This document shows positions 1,848-52,748 of a stretch of DNA of 64,000 bases, one piece after another. Below the pieces are notes generated by a model. That model ran no database searches, was not told the DNA's origin, and saw only the letters and a program-made list of their open reading frames with translations. The position numbers and the translations under genes are program-made. The stretch's first letter is position 1. Every line of letters starts with the position of its first letter. The DNA comes from Mizuhopecten yessoensis (Eukaryota), in assembly GCF_002113885.1 (NCBI RefSeq), contig NW_018408912.1:1-64000 (forward strand). Reading direction: 5' to 3'.

Positions 1848-4358
1848 TTTGGCGACGTTAGGCTGTTCCATGAATCTCGTTTCCACCAACGACACAGACA
1901 CTTCAATACGGAAAATATAAGGGAGAACCTTTATTTCGTTAAATGATTGTGTATTGAAAAGTACTTTTTATTGTTCATTCAGGTATATAAATATGGTAAC
2001 ATGAAGCTCTAGCGGCTTCAATCCTTATGTGACATGAGCCATGTTATAGTAAGACACTCGTAAAATGTTATTAGTTCCCTCACGACGTACATGTTGTGTG
2101 TTACGTGTACACTACTGCTGCCAGAAGTTTGAGGACGGTCTGAACCAGAGGGGAGAACGTCACATGCAATTGTACTTTATGGCTTTCTTTAACACAACGT
2201 TAATTATTTTGATTGAATTCCGCTGACAGTGGCGAAGTGGCGACATATGATCCTGTCACGTGTTCAATAATACATTGGAACGAGGATCTGTGTACAGTAC
2301 GGCGACAAAATGAAAAATTAGGGGTATGTTATTACTCCCGGCAGTAACAGCGGCAGAGTTGCTGATATGAGCGGTACCACTGTTTGCCGTGCATGATTGC
2401 TGTGAGTACACAAGTGCAGCAGATTCTGATTTAAAAAAAAAATGATTATAAGAAATTTGCTAATTCCACACAAGTATTACATTACAAAAGTTTTCTTCTC
2501 ACACAAGTTTTATACACAACAACGTTGTCATTGCCAGGTGAACGTTTGAAACTCAAGTCTTTCGGAAAATTGTAAATGAGGTTCAAATTACATATAGTAG
2601 AAGGTATATACTGGCTTTTGCCACGTGAACACATAAAACTCGACTTTGTATGATTGTGAAATAATTAATATATTTATTTGATGCGTACCCCTAAAACACG
2701 AGTTACAAAGGAAGACAACTTTAAGGACTGTACACTGTCTGGTTAACCAGAGGGTTTTAGGCAAGTTCTAAGAGTAAACTTTAAAGTATACTGTAAGGCA
2801 ATGAGTAGCATACATAGTTTTGCTGCCTCATCTCTGAAGTGGGCAACTTCTTCCAGATTATAACTTATCACGGTTAAGTGCTACTCTATAACATAAACTA
2901 GTCTAAAAAGGAATATAACTTTTCAGTAAAAAAGTCTTTTAGGAAGAGAAGTTATGATTAGTCTATATCCCAGAGAGAGAATTGGGGGACACAAAGAGAA
3001 CTGAGGCCGGATGAGAGAACGTGTCAGCCCTGCCAGTATGTTTTGCACGATTTCTCACCTGGGCGAGAAATTGTGACGTAACAGTACCGCATTATCAGTT
3101 ATTTATTGTTTTACTTTACTTTAGTATATAATTGTGGTTTTAAAGATCTATGTGCATTTGTACAAACAGAAATGCCACATGACCTTTTGGTTGGTTGGAT
3201 TCCTCACAGACAGTGCTTTGTGTGATGGGACCAATATGTCACCGAGCGCAGAAAGCAGGTGCCCGATACATTCTGTTTGTAAGTCCGAGATCAGCCATTT
3301 CCTGCGGATTGCGGAATCCTCCAGGGCTGTAGGCAATTCCAATATCAATTGCTTCCGAATTTATGGTGTTCGACTGATCTCTTCTCAAACCAAATTGATT
3401 TCACGTTCCGATTAGCAAGAAACGTGTACGTATTAGATTTGGTCAGCAGGCCAACGCGCGCTATCTGGACGTTTTTCATTGAGACAAAATCATAAATAGC
3501 AACATGAAACACTCTTGCGATTCAATACTTTGGTTTGAACTATATATAATAGGTTTCCGCAAATGATTATTCGAATACTATTGACAGATGTAAGGAGCTT
3601 GTGGCTCTGGTATCGTGCTGAGGTATTTGTAACATGAGAAACAACAGTACACTCGACCACATCTTCCAATGTAAATGTAATCACTTCTAGTACCTATACC
3701 TGATATTGGCCACACACCAAGGATGTGGTCTGTGATCAAGTCCACAACCGTTACAAGCGTCTGGTGGACGCGGATATGACATTGCTCGCTTAGATTCATG
3801 AAGACATTCGGACACGCTGGCTGATGGACAGTGACCAGAGCAGCAGATACGAAACTGTCTGACAAGGGATTGTTGCTTTATTGCGACGGCGTCTACATTA
3901 TAGGGTCTGTTTATAAATATCTATCTCGTAAACACACGATTATTTGTGTATAATGACATTCCCTACCTTTATCCCATAGACATTAATGTCAGGAAGTGCA
4001 CGCCTGTATGTCTATCACTTATAAACAGTTTATGTGTCTCGCTAATCACTTTCTACTCTCACCTTCACAACGATATTAATGCAGAATCTTTAGCGACTTT
4101 CCTTTTAATATGGGTTTCTGGAACTAGTCTAGAGGGCTACAAGGCCCTGTCTAAATCAAAGGAAACATTTAGGACGAATTTCGAGAATGTTTACTGAAAT
4201 GGAAACGAATTTACTTGTAACATAATTTGTGTCACATATCCAATAATACGCGGAAATATTTCGCAAACAATGCAACACGTTATCACTGTCGTCTCCATCT
4301 TGGTGGAATTAATATCTTCAGTGTGACGACATAATGCATCTGACGTCACATTAGTATG

Positions 4359-4859
4359 GTGATAAATAGATGATGATATGGGGGGAGGGTTGCTAAGGAA
4401 ATCCGCCATTTTGGATCCAAGATGGCGCCTTAGCAACCCCCTTTACCTACGGCTCCATATCTTCATCACTTCATCATGCTTTTTTTTTGCGTGTGATGTC
4501 ATCAATTTTAGTGTTAACGACTGAATTATCTCCCCCTGTTTCCAAAAGGTGTGTATATTTAGTGTGACGTCATTTTGACGGAATTAACTCCCCTTGTTTC
4601 TGACTTTTAACCTTCTGATTTCAGGTATTGCATCCATGGACTGTCTCTCTCTCTGCAATGCTTGACAGACCTGTTTTTTTTTTCTCTTTTCTTTTCTTTT
4701 CTGCTCTTTTTCTGCTCTTTTTAGTCATATCTTTTCATTTTCCTTGATAATCTTATACATAAAACATATTTATAAACAATAAATAGTTACAACATGCGTT
4801 TTTTACGATATAACATAATTCTTTTATTTACAATGTGCTGATTAAATCAACTAAGGTGT
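4359..4859 (+). repeat. Left long inverted repeat (~500 bp), with a hairpin at 4387-4439
   Basis: 'gtgataaatagatgatgatatg...ctaaggtgt' aligns by eye to the reverse complement of 6994-7480. Confidence 0.9.
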
Positions 4860-5981
4860 AAAAAAAAACCACGAATGGCTTTTTCCAAATGAAAAATAGT
4901 GTTAGTTTTCCTCGCTCAACATGGCCAATAAGTAGTGTTGTCGTGTTGTTTGAACTGAAAGAAATAGAAAAAAAAAATATCAATACATTAAAAAAACCCA
5001 ACAAAAAACAGAAAAGCAAATGCACTATTTTTTACAATATACTTATACTTACATGGTAGTTTGTAATAATACTGGCCACTTGCACGTCGTTGTCTATGCA
5101 TTCTTTGACGATGTTGTTTCCTAATGCACTCCTTGTCGTTTGATATGTTTTGTCGTTCCTTCCTGTACGTGTCTGCTTGCCGTTGTATTAATTGGTGCTG
5201 GCGGAGGAAGTCGGATAGACTGCATATTGTCAGAATCGTACGGTAAGCTTAAGTTGACGCCATGGTCGTCGAACGTGATGTCACTTCCATCGATCGTTAT
5301 CAGCTCTTAACTCAGGCTTCTATGTAAAATCAAAAGAACATTGGAAGACGGAGGGGTCAATTTCAGTTTTAAGGGGTCAATTGCCCCCTCCAGGATTATC
5401 CCTGGGAGGCATAAACGAAAATAGCTATTTTTACCCCCACGAAAACGAAAGTTAAGATATTTCTATAAGCATATTGCATGTATAAGTATTCGTCTATTTT
5501 GTAAGACATCTATCATGTCTTGTAAAGGTTTTTTTCAAGGATTCCATACTGTAAATGCACTGGTCATAGCCAAAGATAGCTCCTTGCAAGCTGTTAGACA
5601 ACCCTGTCAATTGCCGATAAACTTGTAGCTGAAGTTACTAAACAATTTCTAGCTATTCTATAGCTTTAAAACAGTTACGATTCAAGAAATATTTAGAATT
5701 GTCATGAAATACGTTTTAAAGTAAAGAAAATACCTGATAATCGTTGTTATTCGTAGACTGAACCGTTCTTCAAAGCCTGGTGTAGTGTCAACTATCCGTT
5801 CATGTGACGTCATAACCGAAAGTGAAAAGTATAAGAGTTACTTTTGGTCCCTCTGGAGTACAAGTGGTTTACAAAGATAGTACAGGGGTCCTTAATTGAT
5901 TCGCAAAGTAAAGAGTGTCGCCGATTTTGATTCAGATGTAGCACCTGTTACGACAAAGGAGTGAAAACAGCTCTTTACACT

Positions 5982-6256
5982 TTAATAACCGTACGGATAC
6001 GTGTTTAAATAACCCTTTTAGTATATACGAGTCTATACAAGTTGGTACGCGTTTCATTGTACAGCGCAAATGTCCTCTGATCCCTCATTATTTTTTCGTC
6101 TACTGTTTTTGTGACTCTACCGCGGTCCGACAATACAATGTCTTTCATCATAGAGAAGTTGACAGTCCTGTCGTTTTGTACTGTACGTTCAGGGAAAATC
6201 ACCTGACCTTACACGTAGTGTTGTCTTTGTCCTTAGGTCCGGCAAAAACGAATTCC
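5982..6256 (-). pseudogene. C-terminal fragment of a protein-primed DNA polymerase B (Polinton/adintovirus type)
   Basis: Manual translation: EFVFAGPK...TTCKVR*FSLN / frameshift / VNFSMMKDIVL...YRLVYTKRVI / frameshift / TYPYGY-stop. This matches the pPolB C-terminal motifs EFVSxGPK, CKVRGFxLN, YxKR and the terminal TxPYGY. Confidence 0.85.
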
Positions 6257-6675
6257 GAACTATTTGTTCACAATGGGGTAGCTTTAGATGACGTAACGGT
6301 CGTCGAACGTGACGTCACTATCATCGATGTGTATATTTCTGTGACTTCATCCAATTTAGTGTTACAGAATGAATTATCTCACCCTGTTTCCAATAGATGT
6401 GTATATTGCGTGTGACGTCATTCTGCTTCTGTTTTCATTGGCGTTACACACATTACACAAACATTTATGAAATGATGTGGAGGGTGGTTGTAGTTTGTGT
6501 ATTGTGTGTGACGCCATCAATTTCGCATTACCTACGAAATTATCTCCCCTGTTTCCGCCTTTTTCTGATTCTGATTTCAGGTATTCTCTCCAGGGCTTTC
6601 TCACCAATGCTTCGTCGACCTTACAAAAACGCCATTAATAGTAACATGGAAGCCGAATTAGAAAGGCTGTGAAAA

Positions 6676-6790
6676 GACCAATCAGAGTTTGACCAATCAA
6701 ATTTGAGCAGCTAAATGCAATGACCAATCAGATTTCGACAAATTAGATTTGAGCAACTAAATGCATCGACCAATCAGATTTGAGCAACGA
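6676..6790 (+). repeat. Short tandem repeat of CCAAT-containing units inside the Polinton relic
   Basis: 'gaccaatcag/a..tttgagca' repeated about four times. Confidence 0.7.
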
Positions 6791-6993
6791 TATACAACAC
6801 ACGGTGCTGTGTACATCAACAAGATAACCCCTAAGTTTGACTTGACTGATTGTTAGCATTGATTTAAAAGAAACAGAAAACAAACGTTTTAGTTGGAAAA
6901 TACCAAACTCTTTTTAGTACTAGTTATATATAAACGCGTTACATGCACTTCAGCTAAAGATGTAGACCTCACTCAGTGTTACGTGAAAATGTA

Positions 6994-7480
6994 ACACCTT
7001 AGCTTATTTAATCAGCACATTGTGAATAAAAGAATTATATTATATTGTAAAAAACGCATATTGTAACTATTTATTGTTTGTAAATATGTTTAATGCATAA
7101 GATTATCAAGGAAAATGAAAATATAAGATTAAAAAGAGCAGAAAAGGAGTAGAACAGAAAAGAGAGAAAAAACAGGTCTGTCAAGCGTTGCAGAGAGAGA
7201 GACAGTCCATGGATGCAATATCTGAAATCAGAAGGTAAAAAGTCAGAAACAAGGGGAGTTAATTCCGTAAAAATGACGTCACACTAAATATACAGATATT
7301 CAGTCGTTAACACTAAAACTGATGACGTCACACGCAAAACCCCCCACATGATGAAGTGATGAAGATATGGGGCCATAGGTTGAGGGGGTTGCTAAGACGC
7401 CATCTTGGATCCAATATGGCGGATTTCCTTAGCAACCCCCCACCCCCACCCCCACCCCCATATCGTCATCTATTCATCAC
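6994..7480 (-). repeat. Right long inverted repeat (~490 bp), with a hairpin at ~7384-7440
   Basis: 'acaccttag...catatcgtcatctattcatcac' is the reverse complement of the left copy. Confidence 0.9.
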
Positions 7481-8596: not shown

Positions 8597-8804
8597 CTGA
8601 GAAAGAATAAGAATGATCATTAAACTAAATGTATGTGACAAATAATGATCGCATTGGAATTTTGTTGAATGAGTTTCACACGATATAACTGTATCCAAGG
8701 AAACTAAAGCGAACAATACTATTACAGTCAAACAACCATAGACTGAAATAGTCATGTATAAGGGAAATGAATGGAAGTTGCAATTGTTGAAGTTGATAAT
8801 TTAC

Positions 8805-9537
8805 CTTTTCTGGGTCCTCGACTTCTGGGGGAGGCTAAGTTTTGGTTCGTGTGGCCACTCAGTCCAACTGTCTATACTGGGTAGGGGTCTTTGGTTGGAC
8901 AATTTGTTTTCCGGCAAAGTTTGGGTCCGTTTGGCAAGTTCCATTTCCATTTTCAGGTCTACCATGTCCCGAATTAAGGTCGGAGGGATGGCAGGACGGA
9001 GGAATCTGGAACAGCCATCAGTAATGTCTTCATTATCCTTTTTCTCAACCTCATGATTCATTGTATCCGGTACTGTTTGGTCACTTTCGAATCCTTCAGT
9101 ATAATGAAAGATAGACGGCAAACGGTACCGATACACGTCTTGTATAAGGTGATTATGGAAGTTCTGATTGGCGTCATATTCACCATCAAACATTTTTCGC
9201 TTGAGAGACATTGGTGAAAAAAACGAAGGTTCGTAAATTGATTCTCTATCGTTGTCAGCCTCACGCAATACTTCCGGTGGGGCGCTACCAAACTTGTCCA
9301 TCACATGACTACACGCACCATCACTGTGTCTGTCACATGGAGGCTGAATAAAAAAAACAGGGCATGACATCGGTTGACTTTCATCTGGAACCACGCAATC
9401 GAGACACATTGTCTGATTTACGTCGCTCTCTGACGTCACATCCACAGGATACATACTGCTGTAACGAGAGGAGCAGTACAGCTTCCGGTGTGTGTCCTCT
9501 ATGGCGGACCGTGTGGACGGCGGTAACACGTGGTCTC
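8805..9537 (-). CDS. Exon 5 of the C7orf31/SPMIP4-like gene
   Basis: A 733-nt open frame (ORF 8801..9529) bounded by a ttacag acceptor and an AG|gtaa donor. Phase 1 in and phase 2 out match the neighbouring exons. Confidence 0.85.
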
Positions 9538-9689
9538 CTGTAACATAACCATAAACATTCTCTTAAAGATAATTTTTCTGAAAGTCAGTTTAAAAACTTC
9601 ACCAGCCCGGATGTTTCAAAATAGTGTTCCCGTGTATTCATTGGATATATGACAAAACAGACCTCCCTGTAGCACACCGTACATTGTAT

Positions 9690-11760
9690 AGACATTCATA
9701 ACCACAGAAGTTCTTCCAGTTCATTATTTTCCAACCTGAAGTTAACTTCGTGTATATTGGCTATATCTATCCATAACTTATCTCTTATAACATTCGTAAA
9801 ATCACATCTTAACACAACATGTTCTGTATGATTTGCAGTGTTACTGCTTCTAATTGTTACAATAAGATTCATTATAAACTGTATAAAGGGCATTTCTTTG
9901 ATAACAACTATAGACAGTGCGGTTGTAACTTATCATGAATATGTATAAATTTTGCTCAAATCATAGTCATTTGAGATACGTTCACTAAAATCATTTTCCT
10001 GTTTGATTGAAACAGACACTTTCACTATAGTTTTCCAGTTTCTCTCATCAGGAAAATTACAATTATTTATAAGTTCATGCACATATTTGTACAGACTATA
10101 CTTCAATTGTATCCATCAACAGAACTGCTGTAATCAATGGATTCAAAAAGATCTTATCTGATAACGTATTCCTGCCCATACTACATAGCCTTCCAAAAAT
10201 AGTAATCTCTTGACGTTAATAATACTTTCTATGGATGACCATCCTATTTTCTTCTTTCAAATCCTTGTATAGATTTTATTACAACATTGTGAGCCCGTTC
10301 TAATATAAGAATTTCTGTTCGTGACAAATACCAAAGTTCGCAACCATACAGTGCCGAAGCATATACCGTATGTTTGATTAACTTACATGAAGTGTAAGTG
10401 GGTTTAAAGCTCTTGGATGTAATCCGTTCCGTATGAGTCTCATGGTATCACTTTTTAACTTACAACATGCTCTAGAGATGCGATTGAAAGAATTTAATTT
10501 AGAAGTTAATGCAACACCAACATGAATAATGGTTTCCTTTTGGTATTATGATTTTCATTTTTTTGGTCTTGGTCCCAGAAAAAACCAATCTCCATTTCTT
10601 GCTATATTTTTCGCAAATATCTAACATACATCTAACATCGCTGACTCTATTAGCAATCAATGTGATATCGTCAGCTTGAGTAGGAACATTTACAGTTATT
10701 CCCATTACAGTGCAACTTTTACCGCTTTTCTCTATTTGATTCAGTACAATCTAATTAAAATTATATCTTCACATCGCTCCCGCTTACTGATATGTCGCGT
10801 TGAAGATTTAACAACATCCCGTAGAGGGTCACGTCAGAGGTCAACATGAATGCATTATCGTATTTATAACAAGCTAATCAAAACGCGACATAACTCTTTC
10901 TTTAAACCAATCAGAAAGCAGGACCTGTAGCATTTAATGCAGACACCTCGTAGCCTTTTTCGTCTGCTCCAGTGATTGTTTGAATATTGCGAAGCCTGTC
11001 ATTGGTTAATTTTAGTTTCAGGTTGTTAAACTTTTAAACGACAACATCACCAGAAGAGGAAGTCTCTCTTATTTCAAAGCAAAATCCACAAATTCTACAA
11101 ACGTTGTCTTGTAGATAGACACGGCGTGGTGTCATGGGCGCCGCCATTTTCGATGCTCATTTGACACCTCTCTGCAAGTCATAGCAAGTGTGTTCCGAAA
11201 TCATTACATCATCACTTACAGAAATGCATAAGCTCTCATCTGATTGGTTAATGCAAAGGTCGCCTGAACATGACCATCTACGGGATGTTGTTAGATCTTC
11301 AACGCGACATATCAGTAAACGGGAGCGATGTGAAGATATAATTTTAATTAGATTGGATTCAGTAGATCATTAATAAAAACTAAGTACATTTTTGCTGACA
11401 ATGCTCTTCCTTGTAAGATACCCCGTTGGACGTTAACCCACCTCGATGTATGGTTATTAGCTATTATACAACTTCGCACACCAGTATTCATACATTTTAA
11501 GATTACCCATACCTTTGATTTAAGTCCTATTTCATGTAACTTGTACAACAATCCAACGTGCCAAACAGTATCGAAAGTTTTGTTCCTGTCCAGAAATGCT
11601 ACAGTAACATGTCAAAATAGGACTGATTCTATCATCAATAATAGTTTCGAATATTTTAAAAATAACTGGAAGTAAGGTTACACTTCTGTAGCTATTCGAA
11701 TCCTATCTGGGTTTATTATTACCTTTATATCATGTAACGATTTGCCTTCTTTTACGTAAT
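9690..11760 (-). mobile_element. Decayed non-LTR retrotransposon (CR1/L2-group LINE) ORF2, interrupted by a MITE
   Basis: RT motifs appear in order: YRSVTLL (~11690), AFLD..FDTVWH (~11580), RGILQG..LS...Y.VFINDLL (~11400), PTQADD (~10680), KWRLVFS..KT, and a C-terminal EHVVLRC..RDKLW (~9800). There are many stops and frameshifts. Confidence 0.85.
10747..11355. mobile_element. 609-bp MITE with ~85-bp TIRs and a 9-bp TSD (Mutator-like by TSD length)
   Basis: TIR 'caatctaattaaaattatatcttcacatcgctcccg...' with its reverse complement ending at 11355. GATTCAGTA is duplicated at 10738-10746 and 11356-11364. Confidence 0.9.
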
Positions 11761-14839: not shown

Positions 14840-16470
14840 GGTACTTGTCAGTCTAAGCCACTCGGCAGCATGTCACATTTCTGGGTACTAGTCAGTCTAA
14901 GCCACTCGGCAGCATGTCACACTTGAGGGTACTAGTCAGTCTAAGCTACTCGGCAGCATGTCACACTTGAGGCTACTAGTCAGTCTTAGCCACTCGGCAG
15001 CATGTCACACTTGAGGCTACTAGTCAGTCTAAGCCACTCAGCAGCATGTCATCCTTGAGGGTACCTTTCAGTCTAAGTCACTCGGCAGCATGCCACACGT
15101 AATGGTACTTGTCAGTCTAAGACACTCGGCAGCATGTCACACTTGAGGGTACTAGTCAGTCTAAGCCACGCGACAGCATGTCATACGTAATGGTACTTGT
15201 CAGTCTCAGACACTCGGCAGCATGTCACACTTGAGGGTACTTGTCAGTCTAAGCCACTCGGCAACATGTCACAATTGAGGGTACTAGTCAGTATAAGCCA
15301 CCCGGTAGCATGTCACACTTGAGGGTACTTGTCAGTCTAAGCCACTCGGCAACATGTCACAATTGAGGGTACTAGTCTAGGCCACTCGGCAGCATGTCAC
15401 CCTTGAGGGTACTTGTCAGTCTAAGCCACTCGGCAGCATGTCACACTTGAGGCTACTAGTCAGTCTAAGCCACTCAGCAGCATGTCATCCTTGAGGGTAC
15501 TTGTCAGTCTAAGTCATGCGGCAGCATGTCACACGTAATGGTACTTGTCAGTCTCAGACACTCGGCAGCATGTCACACTTGAGGGTACTAGTCAGTCTAA
15601 GCCACTGGGCAACATGTCACAATTGAGGGTACTAGTCAGTATAAGCCACCCGGCAGCATGTCACACTTGAGGGTACTAGTCAGTCTAAGCCACTGGGCAA
15701 CATGTCACAATTAAGGGTACTAGTCAGTGTAAGCCACCCTGCAGCATGTCACACTTAAGGGTACTAGTCAGTCTAAGCCACTCGGCAACATTTCACAATT
15801 GAGGGTACTAGTCTAAGCCACTCGGCATCATGTCACCCTTGAGGGGACTTGTCAGTCTAAGCCACTCGGCAGCATGTCACACGTGAGGGCACTAGTCAGT
15901 TTAAGCCACTCGGCAGCATGTCACAATTGAGGATACTAGTCAGTATAAGCCACCCGGCAGCATGTCACACTTATGGGTATTAGTCAGTCTAAGCCACTCG
16001 GCAACATGTCACAATTGAGGGTACTAGTCTAAGCCACTCGGCAGCATGTCGCCCTTGAGGGTACTTGTCAGTCTAAGCCACTCGGCAGCATGTCACACTT
16101 GAGGGCACTAGTCAGTTTAAGCCACTCGGCAGCATGTCACAATTGAGGGTACTAGTCAGTCTAAGCCACCCGGCAGCATGTCACACTTGAGGGTACTAGT
16201 CAGTCTTAGCCACTCGCCAACATGTCACAATTGAGGGTAGTAGTCTAAGCCGCTCGGCAGCATGTCACCCTTGAGGGTACTTGTCAGTCTAAGCCACTCG
16301 GCAGCAAGTCATTCTTGAGGGTACTAGTCAGCCTAAGCCACTCGGCAGCATGTCACACTTGAGGGTACTAGTCAGTCTAAGCCACTCGGCAGCATGTCAC
16401 ACTTGAGGGTACTAGTCAGTCTAAGCCACTCAGCAGCATGTCACACTTGAGGGTACTAGTCAGTCTTAGC
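14840..16470. repeat. 44-bp minisatellite, ~37 copies
   Basis: Unit gggtactagtcagtctaagccactcggcagcatgtcacacttga; period 44 measured at 16321/16365. Confidence 0.95.
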
Positions 16471-17039
16471 CTTTCATGATAAAATGTGAAATCATCATTC
16501 ATGAAAAAAATATTTTGATTTTAAAGGCGAAGGTGGCTGACGGTTTCTGGTAGCATTTTACTAAGGCAACAGATAACAAGAGATAACATTTGATTATTAA
16601 GCATTAAGATACTGATTAAATTGCTTTTCATATAGAAAAACAACTGCAACGGTAGCCCGGGGGTCAGTTCTAAATGCAAAATCAAGAGATTTGAGTAATT
16701 AAATCGGCGATAACTATATCAAATGTGGATTTCTGAATGTACATATAAGCCCGTAACGCTAGTTCAGGCCCTAGAGGAACCAGAGCCGTTCTGAGGCCAG
16801 CACAAGCAATTAACTTACAGGAGGTCGTTTGGAGATAATAAAACGTTATTGAATTGGACCGATGGGGGTTACCAGCAAATATTCATTGACAGCAGAAGTC
16901 GATTAATAACAGCAAAAAACACTTCTGTGAAAAGAGGTGAATTGCAAACAGTACAGAAGTGCAAAAATTGAGATGAGTGTATAACATTACGGGAGGGTCC
17001 GACTGGGAACAGGATTGGAGACACAAATGATTAAATAAG

Positions 17040-19835
17040 ATTAGTTGAATAGGAGACAGTAACTAATTACAGAAATAGTTAAACAGGAGACAGTAACTCA
17101 TTACAGTAAAAAGTGAAATAGCAGACAGTAACAAATTACAGGAATAGTTAAATAGGAGACAGTTATCCATTACAGAAATAGTTAAATAGGAGACAGTAAC
17201 CCATTACAGAAATAGTTAAATAGGAGACAGTTGTAACTCATTACAGAAACAGTTAAATAAGAGACAGTAACTAATTACAGAAATAATAAAATAAGAGACA
17301 GTTGTAACTCATTACAGAAAAAAGTGAAATAGGAGACAGTAACAAATTACAGAAATAATAAGAGACAATTGTAACTCAATAAAAAAAAGTTAAATAGGAG
17401 ACAGTAACCATTTACAGAAACAGTTAAAAAGGAGACAGTAACCAATTACATAAACAGTTAAATAGGAGACAATGACCAAATACAGAAATAGTTAAAAAGG
17501 AGACAGTAACCAATTACAGAAACAGTTAAATAGGAGACAGTAACCAATTACAGAAACAGTTAAATAGGACACAGTAACCAACTACAGAAACAGTTAAATA
17601 GGAGACAGTAACCAACTACAGAAACAGTTAAATAGGAAACATTTGTAACTCATTACAAAAAAAAGTGAAATAGGAGACAGTAACCAATTACAGAAACAGT
17701 TAAATAGGAGTCAGTAACCCATTACAGAAATAGTTAAATAGGAGACAGAAACAGTTTAATAGGAATCAGTTACTCATTACAGAAATAATAAAATAAGAGA
17801 CAGTTGTAACTCATTACAGAAATAGTTAAATAGGAGACAGTAACCAATTACAGAAATAGTTAAATAGGAGTCAGTAACCCATTACAGAAATAGTTAAATA
17901 GGAGACAGAAACAGTTTAATAGGAATCAGTTACTCATTACAGAAATAATAAAATAAGAGACAGTTGTAACTCATTACAGAAATAGTTAAATAGGAGACAT
18001 TAACCAATTACAGAAACAGTTAAATAGGACACAGTAACCAACTACAGAAACAGTTAAATAGGAGCCAGTGACCAATTACAGAAATAGTTAAACAGGAGAC
18101 AGTAGCCAATTACAGAAACAGTTAAATAGGAGACAGCAAACAATTACAGAAACAGTTAAATAGGACACAGTAACCAACTACAGAAACAGTTAAATAGGAG
18201 CCAGTAACCAATTACAGAAATAGTTAAATAGGAGACAGTAGCCAATTACAGAAACAGTTAAATAGGAGACAGTAAACAATTACAGAAACAGTTAAATAGG
18301 ACACAGTAACCAACTACAGAAACAGTTAAATAGGAGCCAGTNATTACAGAAATAGTTAAATAGGAGTCAGTACCCCATTACAGAAACAGTTAAATAGGAG
18401 ACAGAAACAGTTGAATAGGAATCAGTTACTCATTACAGAATTATTAAAATAAGAGACAGTTGTAACTCATTACAGAAATAGTTAAATAGGACACAGTAAC
18501 CAACTACAGAAACAGTTAAATAGGACACAGTAACCAACAACAGAAACAGTTAAATAGGAGACAGTAACCAATTACAGAAACAGTTAAATAGGACACAGTA
18601 ACCAACTACAGAAACAGTTAAATAGGACACAGTAACCAACTACAGAAACAGTTAAATAGGACACAGTAACCAACTACAGAAACAGTTAAATAGGACACAG
18701 TAACCAACACCAGAAACAGTTAAATAGGAGACAGTAACCAATTACAGAAACAGTTAAATAGGACACAGTAACCAACACCAGAAACAGTTAAATAGGAGAC
18801 AGTAACCAATTACAGAAACAGTTAAATAGGACACAGTAACCAACTACAGAAACAGTTAAATAGGACACAGTAACCAACTACAGAAACAGTTAAATAGGAC
18901 ACAGTAACCAACAACAGAAACAGTTAAATAGGAGACAGTAACCAATTACAGAAATAGTTAAATAGGAGTCAGTACCCCATTACAGAAACAGTTAAATAGG
19001 AGACAGAAACAGTTGAATAGGAATCAGTTACTCATTACAGAATTATTAAAATAAGAGACAGTTGTAACTCATTACAGAAATAGTTAAATAGGAGCCAGTA
19101 ACCAATTACAGAAATAGTTAAATAGCAGACAGTAATCCATTACAGAAATAGTTAAATAGCAGACAGTGACCAATTACAGAAATAGTTAAATAGGAGACAG
19201 TAACCCATTACAGAAATAGTTAAATAGGAGACAGTAACCCATTACAGAAATAGTTAAATAGGAGACAGAAACAGTTTAATAGGAATCAGTTACTCATTAC
19301 AGAAATAATAAAATAAGAGACAGTTGTAACTCATTACAGAAATAGTTAAATAGGAGCCAGTAACCAATTACAGAAATAGTTAAATAGCAGACAGTGACCA
19401 ATTACAGAAATAGTTAAATAGAAGACAGTGACCAATTACAGAAATAGTTAAATAGGAGTCAGTAACCCATTACAGAAATAGTTAAATAGGAGACAGTGAC
19501 CAATTACAGAAACAGTTAAATAGGAGACAGTGACCAATTACAGAAATAGTTAAATAGGAGACAGTAACCAATTAGGCCTACAAAAATAGTTAAATAGGAG
19601 TCAGTAACCCATTACAGAAATAGTTAAATAGGAGACAGAAACAGTTTAATAGGAATCAGTTACTCATTACAGAAATAATAAAATAAGAGACAGTTGTAAC
19701 TCATTACAGAAATAGTTAAATAGGACACAGTAACCAACTACAGAAACAGTTAAATAGGACACAGTAACCAACTACAGAAACAGTTAAAAAGGAAACAGTA
19801 ACCCATTACAGAAACAGTTAAATAGGAGACAGTAA
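17040..19835. repeat. 34-bp minisatellite, ~80 copies, with an assembly N at 18342
   Basis: Unit acagaaacagttaaataggagacagtaaccaatt; period 34 measured at 17521/17555. Confidence 0.95.
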
Positions 19836-23481: not shown

Positions 23482-25308
23482 ATATGGAACATTGATATAA
23501 CAAAGACTAAGATATGGAACATTGATATAACAAAGACTAAGATATGGAACATTGATATAACAAAGACTAAGATATGGAACATTGATGAAACAAAGACTAA
23601 GATATGGAACATTGATGAAACAAAGACTAAGATATGGAACATTGATGAAACAAAGACTAAGATATGGAACATTGATGAAACAAAGACTAAGATATGGAAC
23701 ATTGATGAAACAAAGACTAAGATATGGAACATTGATGAAACAAAGACTAAGATATGGAACATTGATGAAACAAAGACTAAGATATGGAACATTGATGAAA
23801 CAAAGACTAAGATATGGAACATTGATGAAACAAAGACTAAGATATGGAACATTGATGAAACAAAGACTAAGATATGGAACATTGATGAAACAAAGACTAA
23901 GATATGGAACATTGATGAAACAAAGACTAAGATATGGAACATTGATGAAACAAAGACTAAGATATGGAACATTGATGAAACAAAGACTAAGATATGGAAC
24001 ATTGATGAAACAAAGACTAAGATATGGAACATTGATGAAACAAAGACTAAGATATGGAACATTGATGAAACAAAGACTAAGATATGGAACATTGATGAAA
24101 CAAAGACTAAGATATGGAACATTGATGAAACAAAGACTAAGATATGGAACATTGATGAAACAAAGACTAAGATATGGAACATTGATGAAACAAAGACTAA
24201 GATATGGAACATTGATGAAACAAAGACTAAGATATGGAACATTGATGAAACAAAGACTAAGATATGGAACATTGATGAAACAAAGACTAAGATATGGAAC
24301 ATTGATGAAACAAAGACTAAGATATGGAACATTGATGAAACAAAGACTAAGATATGGAACATTGATGAAACAAAGACTAAGATATGGAACATTGATGAAA
24401 CAAAGACTAAGATATGGAACATTGATGAAACAAAGACTAAGATATGGAACATTGATGAAACAAAGACTAAGATATGGAACATTGATGAAACAAAGACTAA
24501 GATATGGAACATTGATGAAACAAAGACTAAGATATGGAACATTGATGAAACAAAGACTAAGATATGGAACATTGATGAAACAAAGACTAAGATATGGAAC
24601 ATTGATGAAACAAAGACTAAGATATGGAACATTGATGAAACAAAGACTAAGATATGGAACATTGATGAAACAAAGACTAAGATATGGAACATTGATGAAA
24701 CAAAGACTAAGATATGGAACATTGATGAAACAAAGACTAAGATATGGAACATTGATGAAACAAAGACTAAGATATGGAACATTGATATAACAAAGACTAA
24801 GATATGGAACATTGATGAAACAAAGACTAAGATATGGAACATTGATGAAACAAAGACTAAGATATGGAACATTGATATAACAAAGACTAAGATATGGAAC
24901 ATTGATGAAACAAAGACTAAGATATGGAACATTGATGAAACAAAGACTAAGATATGGAACATTGATGAAACAAAGACTAAGATATGGAACATTGATATAA
25001 CAAAGACTAAGATATGGAACATTGATGAAACAAAGACTAAGATATGGAACATTGATGAAACAAAGACTAAGATATGGAACATTGATGAAACAAAGACTAA
25101 GATATGGAACATTGATATAACAAAGACTAAGATATGGAACATTGATAAAACAAAGACTAAGATATGGAACATTGATATAACAAAGACTAAGATATGGAAC
25201 ATTGATATAACAAAGACTAAGATATGGAACATTGATATAACAAAGACTAAGATATGGAACATTGATGAAACAAAGACTAAGATATGGAACATTGAAACAA
25301 AGACTAAG
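23482..25308. repeat. Near-perfect 30-bp minisatellite, ~60 copies
   Basis: Unit attgatgaaacaaagactaagatatggaac, with a variant attgatataac...; 40 consecutive identical units at 23581-24780. Confidence 0.98.
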
Positions 25309-25669
25309 ACAGATCAAGTACAATTCGTTTCTACAATTTGTTTGATTAATTGGATTGTCGCTGTTGACATTTTACCATTTTACAGCAATATATATATCAG
25401 CCACCAATCTAGAGACGAAGCTATCTGACATATGTATCTTGTTCGGCTCCATACAGTTTCATCTCTCTGAGCACTCAATTTTATGTTACTGTCGTTATCA
25501 TACATGTATATAAAACATAGTTCGTTTCTCCACATGAAATGTTTGCTGTTTCATATTAATAAAAGTGTTTGAATCACCATATTACTCGCAAAATCGAGAG
25601 ATTTACAGAACTAAAAAAAACCGATAATGACTCCATTTTTTCTGTAGTCTGGCCTTACATGGAGTTAAA

Positions 25670-27100: not shown

Positions 27101-28486
27101 TCACTCTGGTACATGTTCGACTTCCGCCAGAAGCTCACCTTTCTCATCATGAGTTCCGAGTAAAGGGGAGTTGACAGGACACGTCCTACCATCGTCAGAA
27201 GGCGCTTGTTTCTCACTTGAACGACTCTCATGTTCGTCCCATGTTGGTTTTATTTCAATTACGATTGAGTTGGCGTGATTGGCCGACTTCCTACTGTCCG
27301 CCCCGTTACCCGGGTTTGGCTGGTTGACGTCAATGACTGATTGTAAAACCCTGTTTTCGTACCCATATTTGGACGCCAAACTACTATCCTTGTCTACTGA
27401 CCTGTGCTCAGTGCTCTTCCCTTCTACTCCCCGCTGTTGCATCAGCTCCACATACTCCTTGTAGGCTTCTACAGATTTATAATCCCTGTCCATATATCCC
27501 TGGGTCGCATGTTTTCTCAGACGTATCGGAACTTTAGTTCCCCATTGCGCTGGTCTGTGTTTCAAGTTTTCGTGTTTCAATGGTCGTTCGAGTCGCCGGT
27601 TTTTTGTAGATGCAGATTCATACAGTCGTCCCATATCACTCGGCTGTCTGACGACTGTTGTAAGCTGCCCGGCATTTTCTTTCAGGAATTCAGTGCTTGC
27701 TTCTATTCTTCGGACTTCAAAGCAATTTTCACTTGCAACCGAGTCCATTGTGTTTTGTTTTTGAAGTCCTTTTATCTGTATTGATTCGACTCGCTTCCTT
27801 TCCGGCTGGGGTACTATCATCCTGTTAGACAGGACGACATCATTAACTTGTCGCTCCAATACCATGTTTTTTCTACTGCTGTCTAAAGGAATCTCGCCGA
27901 CCGTCCAAGGTCTGTCGGTCGTGATCCGAGGCAACGTACACACGTGGTATCGTAATTTGTCCTTGGATAAACAGTATGTATTTCGGTACATCCGGTCACG
28001 TGCATCTTTGGCACGTGCAATGTTTTCCTTCCATTGCTCCCAAGCATCCGGCTGACTACTTTTTCCATCGGTTGTCTTAGAATCTTTAAATGATCCGTCT
28101 GATAGCATAAATTTAATCGCTCTAGGGGACATTAAAGATGGCGCTTTGGACGAGTTTTGTGATCTATTGTTGGGTGTCCGCTTGCGTGGACTAAAGGAAG
28201 AAGACAATTGATCGTTCATGGGTCGAGGGATCCGTTTTTGGGTTATAACATCGAACCGGAAGCTGGTATCTCCACGATTATCTGATGCTGGTATATCCGT
28301 CAACAAAGGTGCGCGAACACCGACAGGGAACATGCGCCGTGAAATGTTTTCTATTATGTCTTTCTCTTGGCGGCGTTTGTTTATCGACGCTCTAGGTTCG
28401 AACCTCCTTGTTAGATTTTTCTCCGTCAAAAAGGAACCTAAACCACCTTTAGGCGGCGCAGGATTGTCTGCCATTTGAACAGACAT
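27101..28486 (-). CDS. Uncharacterised 461-aa protein, single coding exon, basic and likely disordered
   Basis: Long non-repetitive ORF with raised GC, caaaATG context and an in-frame TGA just upstream. A candidate 5'UTR acceptor (ctttcag) lies at 28739-28740. No domain recognised. Confidence 0.85.
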   Translation of the reverse strand: MSVQMADNPAPPKGGLGSFLTEKNLTRRFEPRASINKRRQEKDIIENISRRMFPVGVRAPLLTDIPASDNRGDTSFRFDVITQKRIPRPMNDQLSSSFSPRKRTPNNRSQNSSKAPSLMSPRAIKFMLSDGSFKDSKTTDGKSSQPDAWEQWKENIARAKDARDRMYRNTYCLSKDKLRYHVCTLPRITTDRPWTVGEIPLDSSRKNMVLERQVNDVVLSNRMIVPQPERKRVESIQIKGLQKQNTMDSVASENCFEVRRIEASTEFLKENAGQLTTVVRQPSDMGRLYESASTKNRRLERPLKHENLKHRPAQWGTKVPIRLRKHATQGYMDRDYKSVEAYKEYVELMQQRGVEGKSTEHRSVDKDSSLASKYGYENRVLQSVIDVNQPNPGNGADSRKSANHANSIVIEIKPTWDEHESRSSEKQAPSDDGRTCPVNSPLLGTHDEKGELLAEVEHVPE

Positions 28487-31400
28487 TTTGTTGATTCACA
28501 GTAACTCCGTCGCAGTTCTTATATGTAAATATATTTCTAGTTTTTGATCTCCTATTCGAAAATCGAAATTCATGGTACACAGGTCCTAATCATGTAGCAC
28601 ATATATCAACGGTTAAGGGATTGTCAGTAGTGGAATGTAGAACAACACAAGGATGGCCGGTTGTGACGTAGAATCTTAGCCCAGTGGTACTGGTAGAAGA
28701 GGAACACACACCTCCTCCTCATATATCAAACGTACGTCCTGAAAGTAGAAAGGTAATACACCGTTATATCTCATTTCGTTGGGTGCTCTGTTAATCAACA
28801 ACAGGCAAATCCGTAGTGAAAATCCTTACTAAACATATCCGATTATAACAACGCATTGTACCGGCATACAAATTCTTACCGGGTATTTAACGCAAGTGAA
28901 AAGATTCTATTAAATAAATACATCTACCTGAATTTAAATGTAAAAAGCCGATTTACACTGCAGTGCCGGGGTAAATAAACTCCCTATAAATACGTCTGGT
29001 GGAGCCACAGGTTGACGCCTTTGTTTGGCATGTGTACAGAGCGTACCCACTGTTAATGGCGCGGACTTGTTGATCATTTCAAATTAATTATAATTGAAGA
29101 AGTTCGATCATTTATAGGGTGTAATGTGCTAGGCGTATATTGTAAGGTTTGTCAGGTGTGCATTGTGTTGTGTGAGTAGTGGAGGAATATTATGACATCC
29201 AGGTATATTATATATCAACGCCGGTAGTACGGGGGTCAGCAGACTGAAGGAGACCTAGCGTAGTGTTAAACATCCCCTTTGACATCTTTGTAGCGAATCT
29301 AAGCCTGTCACAACTGAGTGAATGGAAAAGTATTCTGTGATAAAGTCTTATACTGTTTTATGGCCTTTGAAAGTACTGTGATTTCCCTTTGTAGACTATA
29401 AGCGGGTACATAACGGTATATATCCTAACAGATGTATTAGTCTGCTGAGTTCAGGTCATCTCGTTTATACTATCTTCGGTAACCCAAAAGGACTGTTTCT
29501 AATGTGAGCAATATCATATTAGTGTTAAATCAATGATATCTCTGCACGTATACATATATCAGAAAGTAAGAAATATGTGTAAATGTTTATATATCAATGA
29601 CAAGACAGTAATATATACTTATCAAATAACACAATTATAGCGACCATTATGCAGGCAAAACTCGTATATATAGAATTTTACATAAAAAGTACTTTATATG
29701 AGGTTAATGGAACAAGTCGGTATAAGACATTTAGTTTTTTGTTTGTTTGTAGATAGGTGACACTCCATCTTGATTGTTAATGACATGACTAGACACAATT
29801 ACACTATACAAGGATACGAAAGTGTGAATTTTCGCCATACAAATAGTAAATTTAACACAAATACACTATTTACCTTCGTCAAGCATAGTAAACTCATTGT
29901 CGTATACTGACTAATAGGATCACCTTAATATCAATAATATACAAACGTAGGATTGGTTTTAGATTACAGGTTGATTCACTAAAACATTATTACCTGTCTC
30001 AGCTTCTATATACTTAGTCATTTTCATTAAATCTTATCAATTAGATAAGCAAATACAAATCCGGATACTAAGTATAATTATACATACATGTATCTGTATA
30101 TAACAGACATAGAACGTTTTATATACATTCAGCACGTATACAAACATGGATCGACAACCCTAGATCCGCGCTCATTGAAACATCGTGTCGCTATTGACTG
30201 CACATCGTTTAAACCGTGTATCGGGATATAAAATGTATCAACAACCCAAAATACATTCAAATTAGTCAAAAACGTCAGGTTCAAACATGATGTCGGCGCG
30301 TAAAATATTCCCGTTAAAGTATTGAAAGGCGACTGTGATGAACTGGTTCTTTTTGTACATATAGAAAAAAATATACAATCTGCTATGCATCTTCAATCCT
30401 ACAAAGCATTTATGAATAATGAATGTGAAATATTTTAAATGTCTCTCAGGGAAAGAAAGAAATATCATTAAAAATACATAGACTGATTCAGACAACCCGC
30501 TATAGACAAGGTACTGCTATGGACATTTATATGCATAATATCTGGCATAACAACTAGACAATATCTGTCCAGGAGACAGACTGGAGACGCAATGTAAAAC
30601 GTTGTAAGTCTGACGCTTTTTTTTTTTATCTTATACCAGAAAATCCAACACCGAGTTTAGAAAAACAGCAAGATATATGACTTACCACCTGTGTGATATT
30701 ATCATACAGATCTTTCAGGACAAAAAGTGAAAATCTTACCATTAAATCCCAAACAGTAATTGTATACTTATATCAGTCTCACCTGACAGGTAACCCGCTA
30801 TCTCTGTAAGTCATGTGAAGTATTCCCTGTCAGACCCACACTCACATCTAAGGGCCGTCCACTTGAGGAACCCCTAACTCTTGGATAAACAATGTTAGTA
30901 ATACCCGCGTCAAGACAGCTCAAGCATCAGGTAGGCTTCTGTCACAAGTTGGAATATGTAAATGAACCTGAAGTGTTACCGGTGTACTTCCTCTTACAGA
31001 CGTACCGAGGTACCCAGCTACACATAAACAACCGTCATTTAAAGGTGTAATAATGAACGATAGATCCCGGTCCCGTACATGTCGTAGAAAAATACATTAT
31101 TAGTTTCACAGGTAACCTTCGGAGATTAACATCGAGACACCGTGTTGATAATTGTTGGTTTTGATCCTTAAGGGTAAATAGCTGTGGAATTGCTGTTCAC
31201 ATAAAACTGACGACAGATTTAGACACGAGCTTTCGTGACAAATATCGTAACTCAGTATTTTGTTTACCGCGGCCACAAAGACTTGTCTTTAAGACATGTT
31301 CAATGACTATGGTCTAATATTAATTGAAGTTTTAAATCTAAATTACCTACACGCTAAGTTGACGTGAGAAGTGGATAGCGGTATAACCCTAAAACTACAC

Positions 31401-35040: not shown

Positions 35041-36629
35041 TCCCTCCCCTCAACAAACAATAAAAGACATCATTGGAACTCAATGTCTTTATGAAAAGAC
35101 AACAACAGAGGGACATCAAAACGAAAAGAAAAACATCGTAAACCATTAACCTGTAAAAAGGTAAAACAATGTTATCTACCACATGTGGTACACGTTATGT
35201 CGACAGTCAGATCCATTTAAGTAAGTAGAGGAGAGTATCTAGAAACATGATCAATGGCATGCCTGATTTGTAACTATTTTTCAGTAGGATGGGGTTTAAA
35301 CATTCTTACATCGTTGTGTTACATTGTAGTAAACTACGCAAATTCGTCAGACGTTATTTGCAGTATCTGACAAACGTTGACGTAACACACAGGTCTTTAT
35401 AGACGGAACAGTCGTACTGACACACTCATACGCTACTACGTCCAATTGCAACACATCAAAGAGATACACTAGAAGACAATGTAAACACCATCCTTGTAGC
35501 AAATACTGTAATAACAGAGGCACATTCTTACCTGAGGACGATTCCCACGTTCACACTGTGAGAAAATTTGCACACAGATGTTTAAAAATGTCTTGTCGCA
35601 TCCAAACAAAAATTGACAGTTACATCAGGCAATAAAGACCAACCTTAATGAGATCTGCTAAATAACGGCTGTTCCATTGTTCCATTTTCAGAAATGACGG
35701 AATAGGAAAGTCAATGATGAATTGCCGTATACCATATACTGTCCTCGGTAACTACTGAACTACACCATGCAAAATTAGGCCTATTTTACAGAGAAGACAT
35801 TATTTTAGAATCAATATGTCACATCGTAGGCCCGTCGTATCAAAACTGTTATCGCCAAGCTGGATGGTATTACGGTCATTTCTATAATTGATAAGCAGGT
35901 GCAAAACTTTTATGATGATTGTGTTTTATATGTAATTTTTCATTGTTTGACATTTTCAAGCATATTATATTAGCCTGATACACCAAACCTGGCCGCGGTT
36001 ACACAAGTAGTGTTTATCTGGTGTCTGATCGGGATATACAATCTAGTTGATACAGATCTTAACTTAGGAGTTATGTGTATAACACACTGGAGACAATGCA
36101 TTCAAATCTTACCTTATCTGTTTTAACATAAGACGTAACACCTAAATTACAATCCAGCGTACAGATGTTATACTGTCCTTAGATCCCCTCGGAGACATGT
36201 ATTTACACTGTGTGTGCACTCTTACTGGGAAGAAAACTGAACCCTCTATGGTATGCGGTTAATGGGGTGCCACCTGGTGCAGTCTTGTTAACATAAGCGT
36301 GAGATATGGAGCTGCATACTGCATGAAACGGAATAATTTATAATGCGCTGAGCAAGGTGACTATTTATATACTCTGATCGCTCAGAAGTTAGTAATCAAG
36401 GTCAAAAAGATCCCATACATGTTTAAAAAGTAAACACTCGATCGAATAACATGATTCGTTTCAGCATTTTAAATGTTTTATCTTTATAGAAGCGAATAAC
36501 GCACCTCCAGTTGATGTTACTTTGAAATGTCCAATGATAATATAATCATGTCCCTGAATAGAGAGGGGAGCGTAGTGGTAGATACAGTAAAAAAAATAAA
36601 CTGACAATAAAAGTAAATCACACAAAATA

Positions 36630-38460
36630 GTTGAAACTAACAATATAGGTCACTGACCACCCAGGATAACATGTAATAACAGTATAGGTCACCGACCACC
36701 CATGATAGTGGTAACAAAAAATGTAGGTCACTGACCACCCATGATAGTGGTAACAAAAAATGTAGGTCACTGACCACACATGATAGTGGTTACTAACAAT
36801 AAATGTCACTGACCACCCATGATAATATTAAGTAAGAGTATAGGTCACTGACCACACATGATAGTGGTAACAAATGATATAGGCCACTGACCACCCATGA
36901 TAGCGGTAACAAAAAATGTAGGTCACTGACCACACAGGATAGTGGTTACTAACAATAAATGTCACTGACCACCCATTATAATATTAAGTAAGAGTATAGG
37001 TCACTGACCACACAGGATAGTGGTAACAAACAATGTAGGTCACTTACCAACTATGATAATATAAAGTAACAGAATAGGTCACTGACCACCCAGGATAACA
37101 TGTAATAACAGTATAGGTCACCGACCACACAGGATAGTGGTAGCTTATAATAAATGTCACTGACCACCCATGATAATATTATGTAAGAGTATAGGTCACT
37201 GACCACCCATAAGAGTGGTAACTAATGATATAGGCCACTGACCACACAGGACAGTGGTAACTAACAAACAGGTCACTGGCCACATAGGATACTGGTAACA
37301 AACAATGTAGGTCACTGACCACACAGGATAATATTAAATAACAATATAGGTCACTGACCACACAGGATAGTGGTAACTAACAAAACAGGTAACTGGCAAC
37401 ATAGGATACTGGTTACAAACAATGTAGGTCACTGGCCTCACAGGATAGTGGTTATTAACAATACAGGTCACTGGCCACATAGGATACTTGTAGCAAACAA
37501 TACAGGTCACTGGCCACATAGGATACTGGTAACAAACAATGTAGGTCACTGGCCTCATAGGATAGTGGTAACTAACAAAACAAGTAACTGGCAACATAGG
37601 ATACTGGTAACAAACAATGTAGGTCACTGGCCTCACATGATAGTGGTAACTAACAATACAGGTCACTGGCCACATAGGATACTGGTTATTAACAATACAT
37701 GTCACTGATCACACTTGATACTGGTAACTAACAATACAGGTCACTGACCACCCAAGATCATATAAAGTAACAGTATAGGTCACTGACCACCCATGATAGT
37801 GGTAACTAACAATGTAGGTCACTGGCAACATAGTATACTGGTAACAAACAATGTAGGTCACTGGCCTCACAGGATAGTGGTAACTAACAAAACATGTCAC
37901 TGATCACACATGATACTGGTAACTGACAATAAAGGTCACTGACCACCCATGCCAATATAAAGTAACAGTATAGGTCCCTGACCACCCATGATAGTGGTAC
38001 CTAACAATGAGGTCACTGGTCACACAGAATACTGATAGCTAACAATATGGGTAACTGACCACACGGGATAGTCGTAACTAACAATGTAGGTCACTGGCCA
38101 CACAGGATAGTGGTAACTAACAATATAGGCCACTGACCACACAGAATACTGGTAGCTAACTGACCACACATGATACTGGAGGCTAACAATATAGGTAACT
38201 GACCACACAGGATAATATTAAATAACAATATAGGCCACTGACCACACAGGATAGTGGTAACTAACAATATAGGTAACTGACCACACAGGATAATATTGAA
38301 TAACAGTATAGGTCACCGACCACACAGGATAGAGGTTACTTACAATATAAGTCACTGACCACACAGGATACTAGTAACTAACAATAAAGGCTATTAAATA
38401 ACTCAGGGCAGAGGAAATTAACAATATAAGTCACTGACTGCACAGGTTACATAAACTTAC
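36630..38460. repeat. Degenerate 39-bp minisatellite, ~45 copies
   Basis: Consensus aacaatataggtcactgaccacacaggatagtggtaact. It explains the repetitive ORFs at 36.6-38.2 kb. Confidence 0.95.
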
Positions 38461-43318: not shown

Positions 43319-43577
43319 CACGATTTTTACTATCTGAAACCCTCGCTTTATGCCATCTAACAGGTTTTATCTATTTCCGGTTCAGGGAAGAGAGAGCTAG
43401 AATCCCACCAAGGGCTTCCAAAGGCCTACAGTACCATATTATTACTTTGCTTTGGATGTACTTCGAGTTACCCGCCGATCTACAGTTTAGTCTGATCGCA
43501 TGACACCTGTTCGAATTTCTCTCTTGTTTTACATGTTTGACTAACTGACATTTGCTGGGTACACTTTCGTGGATACA

Positions 43578-44155
43578 GTTGATGCTTCCGGTCACTTTTA
43601 GGGCCAGTTAATGTTTCCGGTCACGTTTAGGGTCAGTTAATGCTTCAGGTAATTTTTAGGGCCAGTTAATGTTTCCGGTCACGTTTAGGGTCAGTTAATG
43701 CTTCAGGTCACTTTTAGGGCCAGTTAATGCTTCCGGTCACTTTTAGGGCCAGTTAATGCTTCCGGTCACTTTTAGGGCCAGTTAATGCTTCCGGTCACTT
43801 TTAGGGCCAGTTAATGCTTCCGGTCACTTTTAGGGCCAGTTAATGCTTCCGGTCACTTTTAGGGCCAGTTAATGCTTCCGGTCACTTTTAGGGCCAGTTA
43901 ATGCTTCCGGTCACTTTTAGGGCCAGTTAATGCTTCCGGTCACTTTTAGGGCCAGTTAATGCTTCCGGTCACTTTTAGGGCCAGTTAATGCTTCCGGTCA
44001 CTTTTAGGGCCAGTTAATGCTTCCGGTCACTTTTAGGGCCAGTTAATGCTTCCGGTCACTTTTAGGGCCAGTTAATGCTTCCGGTCACTTTTAGGGCCAG
44101 TTAATGCTTCCGGTCACTTTTAGGGCCAGTTAATGCTTCCGGTCACTTTTAGGGC
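43578..44155. repeat. 29-bp minisatellite, ~20 copies
   Basis: Unit gttaatgcttccggtcacttttagggcca; period 29 measured at 43745/43774. Confidence 0.97.
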
Positions 44156-52412: not shown

Positions 52413-52748
52413 ATTGTGATGCCTTTAGTACTACTGTAAATAAAATCAAGGTTCTTTGGTTTTTGTCGTCAGGTAAAAGAAAACAAACAAAAACTAAACA
52501 AAAAAATATTAAAACACAAAGCAAAAGACAAAACAAAACACGTTACTATCGACGTGCTTTTTGCTTGTGTTATGTATATGATTTAACAAGTTTTGGCTTA
52601 CAAACATTCTCTTGAATTTGCCAAACATAACAGACTTATACTTTATCATCTATAATTGAAATACAAATTTTGGTACAAACTTCTTGTTCTCTAAATATAC
52701 ATTTGCAGTTCACGGTTTTGTTTTCATTTAGGTGTTTTCTTGTTTTCC

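Follow-up and report, generated by a model that had tools for sequence, protein, structure and literature searches.

The 64,000-nucleotide stretch of Mizuhopecten yessoensis DNA analyzed here (contig NW_018408912.1, positions 1 to 64,000; referred to as the window) contains a short element in which two long inverted repeats enclose the decayed 3' end of a gene for a DNA polymerase B of the protein-primed type (pPolB), and the interior of this element is multi-copy in sequencing runs of the host. Our preferred explanation, which we regard as probable, is that the element belongs to a defective family that was amplified after its polymerase had broken and that was mobilized in trans. A Polinton/Maverick would have undergone a large internal deletion and rearrangement, giving a small non-autonomous family that retained both termini, with their replication and integration signals, and lost all working genes, the polymerase tail being the only recognizable remnant in the family. 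The short form could then have been copied in trans with the help of an intact relative, which would have supplied polymerase and integrase, and the order of events would be breakage of the polymerase, amplification, and finally decay of this copy. A minimal family amplified with a broken polymerase would indicate which cis sequences are sufficient for mobilization in trans, and the hairpins at its termini are concrete candidates for such sequences. The addition is a modest one: degraded and non-autonomous Polintons are known already, this copy is dead, and no helper was seen.

Inverted repeats and hairpin ends

A preliminary description of this DNA had reported two inverted repeats of ~500 bp lying ~2.1 kb apart, and our analysis agrees. 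The left terminal inverted repeat (TIR) occupies 4359–4859 on the plus strand (501 nt) and the right TIR 6994–7480 on the minus strand (487 nt), with 2134 nt between them and a total element length of 3122 nt. The left TIR possibly starts at 4353, with an AG-starting hexamer for which the right end has no mirror image. The two TIRs are 84.5% alike over 516 columns in blastn; 437 of the 467 ungapped columns are identical (93.6%, with seven gap blocks), and the mismatches consist of 21 transitions and 9 transversions. An 18-mer from the TIR occurs at two sites in the window with at most three mismatches, compared to 0.01 expected. A match to this 18-mer in the viral contigs (L094, a phage) was rejected as an 18-nt chance match. 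The repeat lengths lie within the range of about 50–1500 bp used to recognize Polinton TIRs, and within the 46–1447 bp that vertebrate Maverick TIRs span (PMC8097293). We infer that the repeats are Polinton termini. In total length, the 3122-nt element falls short of the 13–25 kb given for Polintons in PMC10748475. Just outside the left TIR, the flank at 4313–4349 holds one motif matching the inner repeat at 17 of 20 nt and a TGACGTCA site at 4341, which are either chance occurrences or an older remnant.

Each terminus carries an imperfect palindrome of ~125 nt, predicted to fold into a hairpin, whose orientation relative to the end is identical on both sides. The left palindrome (4353–4479, plus strand) is centered at ~4412–4417 and has a predicted energy of –31 kcal/mol (z –6.1), and the right one (7349–7479, minus strand) reaches –42.5 kcal/mol (z –8.15); for each of them, none of 200 shuffles was equally stable. 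The flank contigs end at 4416–4417, within the left hairpin, in all four runs analyzed. The terminal hairpins at each end and an internal TIR-like segment, described below, are new details. They also form the basis of a reading that we find very doubtful, in which the elements are ~3-kb satellites of a Polinton, resembling defective genomes, with termini that end in the ~125-nt hairpins. The hairpins would allow the template to fold back during strand-displacement replication, which would produce deleted and rearranged genomes (for example with an internal TIR-like segment), and these genomes would then integrate and multiply on the enzymes of a helper. If true, the satellites would constitute a genomic record of Polinton replication, with more than 100 termini compared to a few tens of gene-bearing copies.

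The element ends in GTGAT...ATCAC, and neither an AGTAGT/ACTACT nor an AGAGAG/CTCTCT motif pair is found at its ends, the set sought, (AGT)2//(ACT)2 and (AG)3//(CT)3, being one described for vertebrates in PMC8097293. The hexamer at 4353 starts with AG and has two mismatches to an end motif, and the right end has no counterpart. The 6-bp target site duplication (TSD) that is characteristic of Polintons is absent at the locus, and no 4–11-mer with at most one mismatch adjoins both ends; the TSD may have been lost in a short deletion on the right side. The lack of a TSD, of a canonical end-motif pair and of a second Polinton gene remnant all speak against our preferred explanation.

The difference between the GTGAT...ATCAC ends and the Maverick motifs would fit a rather unlikely alternative, in which the repeats come from a different kind of non-autonomous DNA transposon with hairpin ends, such as a large MITE or a Mutator/foldback-like carrier. 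This carrier would have captured the Polinton polymerase scrap and other repeat pieces, and its transposase would have spread the subfamily bearing this cargo. The length of the repeats, however, suits Polintons, and the AG-starting hexamer lies just beyond the matched repeat at the left end. Moreover, since no TSD of 4–11 bp adjoins both ends, no other superfamily is supported either.

The polymerase fossil and the search for other genes

At 5982–6258 on the minus strand lie ~100 codons that, judged by sequence comparison, represent the C-terminus of a Polinton/Maverick-type pPolB. The motifs quoted in the preliminary description are indeed present here, but they do not form the single enclosed frame that it proposed: they are spread over three minus-strand frames (6255–6169, 6178–6002, and 6008–5985), with one internal stop, two frame breaks and a terminal stop codon at 5984–5982. 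The short stop-free piece previously given as a 65-aa ORF also exists, although it measures 67 aa from stop to stop (6005–6208). This longest stop-free piece alone matches nothing in Pfam or the ESM Atlas, nothing among 1.84 billion representative proteins and none of 26 stretches in viral contigs, and a search of 5.8 billion proteins, longer lengths included, gave eight candidates, none of them significant. We therefore derived a degenerate pattern from the last two motifs and searched the viral contigs with it. Of the six loci obtained, one (L006) contains a 1313-aa PF03175 polymerase; the other five are unrelated to pPolB and were dropped. In L006 (690–12123, a 13-kb viral contig) the polymerase adjoins an A32-type ATPase and a double-jelly-roll protein, and there is a weak match to the adenovirus core protein X and no integrase among the eight ORFs scanned.

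Used as a query, the C-terminus of the L006 polymerase yielded 62 PF03175 proteins, which constitute our reference set. This group is of the Polinton type: two loci, L067 and L009, join the polymerase with an rve integrase, an adenovirus-type protease and an A32 ATPase. The tblastn comparison with protein-primed polymerases, proposed earlier as a check, gives an HSP at 5970–6300 for 51 of the 62 references at E ≤0.05 (best 4.6e-6), with 30–52% identity to the best matches among those listed. A profile built from the last 125 residues of the 62 references has three colinear minus-frame matches, at 6255–6169 (8.7 bits), 6178–6002 (24.5 bits) and 6071–5985 (7.8 bits), compared to a maximum of 3.9 bits over 100 shuffles and 2.3 bits over 27 other blocks of the window; the earlier assignment of the motifs to the Polinton/Maverick pPolB C-terminus is thus upheld. 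Because the seed was derived from the last motifs, we also cut the profile by its last 24 residues. The first segment then scores 10.2 bits, compared to a shuffle maximum of 5.5, and the second drops to 4.0 bits and fails alone.

The fossil covers ~100 residues of a median of 1370 in the 47 full-length references, it is shorter than the references in two places between conserved motifs, and the homology fades at about 6260–6295. In 61 of the 62 references the C-terminal motifs stay in frame across the region of the last break. Of the protein-primed polymerase expected in a Polinton, the element preserves just the final ~100 codons, in fossil form; about 100 decayed codons in three frames are too few to place the lineage, which the preliminary description had taken as possibly uncatalogued.

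For the search for other genes, 93 loci were fetched and ten of them excluded, because they were unrelated, duplicates or matched only in part; the remaining 83 supplied 1801 ORFs. Of the 69 HSPs that these ORFs produced in the element, 68 fall on the polymerase piece and a weak one in the left repeat, and among 38 family profiles the polymerase family alone scored above zero within the element. An integrase was matched neither by the reference ORFs nor by a five-member integrase profile, for which the references are distant. For the packaging ATPase, 120 Polinton ATPases gave no tblastn HSPs and five of five sub-profiles remained under the shuffle level; this 120-ATPase search led us to reject an ATPase remnant that had been suspected by eye downstream of the polymerase. 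Single queries with the protease ORFs and the putative capsid ORFs from L067, L009 and L006 gave nothing below E 0.01. Decayed remnants of integrase, accessory or capsid genes could escape these searches, because the references are distant. A 61-aa ORF at about 5121–5306 (minus strand) was set aside: it falls in unnamed Atlas clusters with low recognition and has E 0.038 to one L067 ORF. When the interior was read through in six frames, no Pfam or PHROGs family was matched in a meaningful way; the two Rfam matches are both far under the gathering score, none of the 83 fetched loci has a blastn match in the window, the flanking ORFs have no Pfam family, and a bacterial promoter scan was uninformative. 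As the element does not show the integrase, morphogenesis genes, TSD, end motifs or size of a Polinton, we file it as a probable Polinton derivative. That no further Polinton gene was found would also be expected if an unrelated transposon had captured the polymerase scrap.

Copies in the host and the mosaic interior

In 16 of the 20 runs listed (five studies, one organism), a share of 0.27–0.35 of the element's words is present, as would be expected if this copy diverged by ~3.5% from the common form. Another four runs, labeled as the same species, contain almost no element words, and this bears neither way. We analyzed depth in four public runs from four studies, with a flank depth of 10–16; summed contig depth is not equal to copy number. 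A multi-copy interior is what a non-autonomous family, as proposed in the preliminary description, predicts, and this is borne out: all 18 interior bins from 4402 to 7407 have at least 10.7 times the flank depth in each of the four runs. Depth climbs from single-copy to multi-copy in the left-TIR bin and drops to single-copy outside the right TIR, and in all four runs both changes take place at the ends of the repeats. Flank contigs enter the left repeat in all four runs and adjoin or enter the right repeat, so the insertion is present in all four samples and is not an assembly artifact. Among the 15 of 56 joints listed, there is no empty-site joint.

Relative to the flanks, the outer left repeat has a depth of 132–149 times, the stretch 5070–5403 one of 145–244 times and the polymerase piece one of 11–27 times. 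Since the repeat is far deeper than the polymerase piece, most copies of the repeat are unlinked to it, which weighs against our preferred explanation. An outer repeat that is about 5–14 times deeper would suit a foreign carrier that picked up the polymerase piece, but many deleted Polinton derivatives would likewise give more termini than genes. The stretch 5070–5403, whose depth far exceeds that of the parts next to it, combines a 49-nt module, the 61-aa minus-strand ORF and a foreign repeat end.

Variants at 5618, 5954, 6011 or 6041, 6177, and 6333 have 5.8–11.2 times the flank depth (17 values, chosen by eye), which suggests one young subfamily. A 165-nt contig of depth 128.9 in run X4 corresponds to 5979–6143 with four substitutions and no gaps, so that the majority form has the last frame break too. 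Other copies differ near 6175, so the polymerase break there appears to be specific to this one. In run X1, two contigs of depth 111.5 are found at 6177 and again at 6333, which hints that contigs of equal depth cross the polymerase junction, and this was not repeated in the other three runs. That the hint comes from one run of four, and that none of the contigs listed spans the element, are further points against our preferred explanation. According to our preferred explanation, the other copies would be colinear 3-kb elements and a helper would have mobilized them.

A distinctly unlikely history is that a complete Polinton was inserted at this site and that a single later event removed most of its interior; the 3-kb form would then never have moved, and the multi-copy depth would stem from other full-length or differently deleted members. 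This would be in line with the 96% of vertebrate Maverick loci that are degraded according to PMC8097293, with the lack of an element-spanning contig among those listed, and with other copies that differ before 6276. The gapless majority contig, however, has the last polymerase frame break, so the abundant form is itself defective, and contigs of ~300–400 depth cross 5404, which makes the junction with the foreign repeat common to many copies. In addition, among 24 of 983 rows listed, no loose end leads into upstream polymerase sequence.

The interior of the element is a mosaic. A 49-nt direct repeat flanks the polymerase piece on both sides (plus strand, 84% identity between copies). Its first copy, at 5246–5294, is part of a longer module that is abundant in the host, and its second copy, at 6280–6328, sits where the polymerase homology ends; before 6276 other host copies have a different sequence. 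An end fragment of another high-copy repeat lies at 5318–5404, with loose ends on both sides in all four runs, and behind 5404 there are 27–36 contigs with unrelated AT-rich continuations. The last bases of this fragment resemble what we take to be a hAT-type end. The foreign repeat end and the duplicated module around the polymerase piece are features that capture by an unrelated transposon would explain. Further right, a 46-bp tandem repeat at 6676–6781 (plus strand, 2.3 copies) contains four CCAATC boxes, and six of the ten TGACGTCA sites in the window fall inside the element; presumably TGACGTCA and the CCAAT cluster are promoter-like motifs.

The internal TIR-like segment occupies 6340–6602 on the plus strand; it is oriented like the left repeat and has no terminal hairpin. 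It is 85% identical over 86 nt to 4492–4577 and 77% identical over 71 nt to 4578–4647, at other places in the host, contigs connect it with sequence of the outer TIR, and it probably derives from a related subfamily. A unit of ~106 nt at 6493–6598 is tandem in other host copies, with a joint depth of 297–377 in the four runs. One could imagine that an element inserted in the polymerase gene of a related element and that a later deletion fused both, the segment being the left end of the invader. Its left-end orientation next to the polymerase break, its divergence from the termini (77–85%, compared to 93.6% between the termini themselves) and the contigs that tie it to outer-repeat sequence would agree with such a composite, but the outer hairpin region is lacking, and we consider this origin scarcely credible. 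It may nevertheless be compatible with amplification of a defective family in trans, as the origin of the family founder.

Comparison with known elements and other observations

With Polintons/Mavericks the element shares the PF03175 Polinton-group pPolB C-terminus, TIRs of a few hundred bp (PMC8097293, PMC10748475) and a degraded state, which is usual for copies described in PMC8097293 and PMC8502044. It differs from them in its length, 3.1 kb compared to 12.7–24.6 kb, and in having no intact gene. Mavericks were found across the analyzed mollusc genomes (PMC10294476), mollusc pPolBs are included in published trees (PMC10748475), degraded adintovirus relics are widespread (PMC8502044), and corals contain many polintovirus regions (PMC11131425). 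Virions of Polintons have not been observed, and their replication and integration are without experimental proof, according to PMC10748475 and PMC8097293. The preliminary description had also used the label "Polinton-like virus" (PLV), which is wrong, because most PLVs are without a pPolB (PMC5499653). Both belong to a broad class of elements, but most PLVs also lack the integrase and have a helicase instead, and nothing in the present element is PLV-like.

Like non-autonomous Polinton derivatives, the element is TIR-bounded, lacks a working polymerase and is apparently amplified. The "N" in the family name Polinton-1N1_DR marks it as non-autonomous. This zebrafish family is named in PMC9341505, and Polinton-N1A in PMC11296320; Polinton-1N1_DR is likened to our element by name only. 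In Pieris mannii butterflies, polintons that lack polB are still mobile (10.1101/2025.02.07.637071). As described in that work they are longer than 12 kb and still carry other core genes, whereas our element keeps the polymerase scrap alone, its ends form hairpins, and it contains the internal TIR-like segment. For anole, PMC3014272 reports no apparent non-autonomous copies. We found no 3-kb hairpin-ended Polinton family in the literature covered, Repbase and most subscription journals being outside this scope.

The reference loci also contain a structure of related design. In a metagenome contig, L051:3325–9254 (5930 nt) has AGTAGT-starting inverted repeats, a polymerase with one stop and no TSD, and judging from its sequence it appears to be a polymerase-only mini-Polinton. 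This 5.9-kb structure resembles the element in having TIRs around a broken Polinton polymerase and no other long ORF, but its ends are canonical (AGTAGT), the polymerase is largely present, and there is no DNA similarity to the element. L062:74–3932, upstream of a Polinton polymerase, has inverted repeats of ~78% identity over 1 kb, which are possibly a fold-back or two adjoining ends.

Elsewhere in the window, three stop-free frames without a Pfam family, at 8801–9562 (minus strand, 253 aa), 27101–28495 (minus strand, 464 aa) and 55184–56563 (plus strand, 459 aa), are probably large host exons. A 429-aa stop-free reverse transcriptase frame at 51179–52468 (minus strand; RVT_1, E 5e-22) is a LINE fragment. 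Smaller, MITE-like inverted-repeat pairs are found at 10747–11355 (88 nt, 95%) and 757–1418 (172 nt, 76%). Tandem arrays occur at 14840–16471 (period 44), 17043–19835 (period 34), 36619–38390 (period 39) and 43576–44155 (period 29), and the array at 23482–25309 has a period of 30, with 61 copies and 98% matches.
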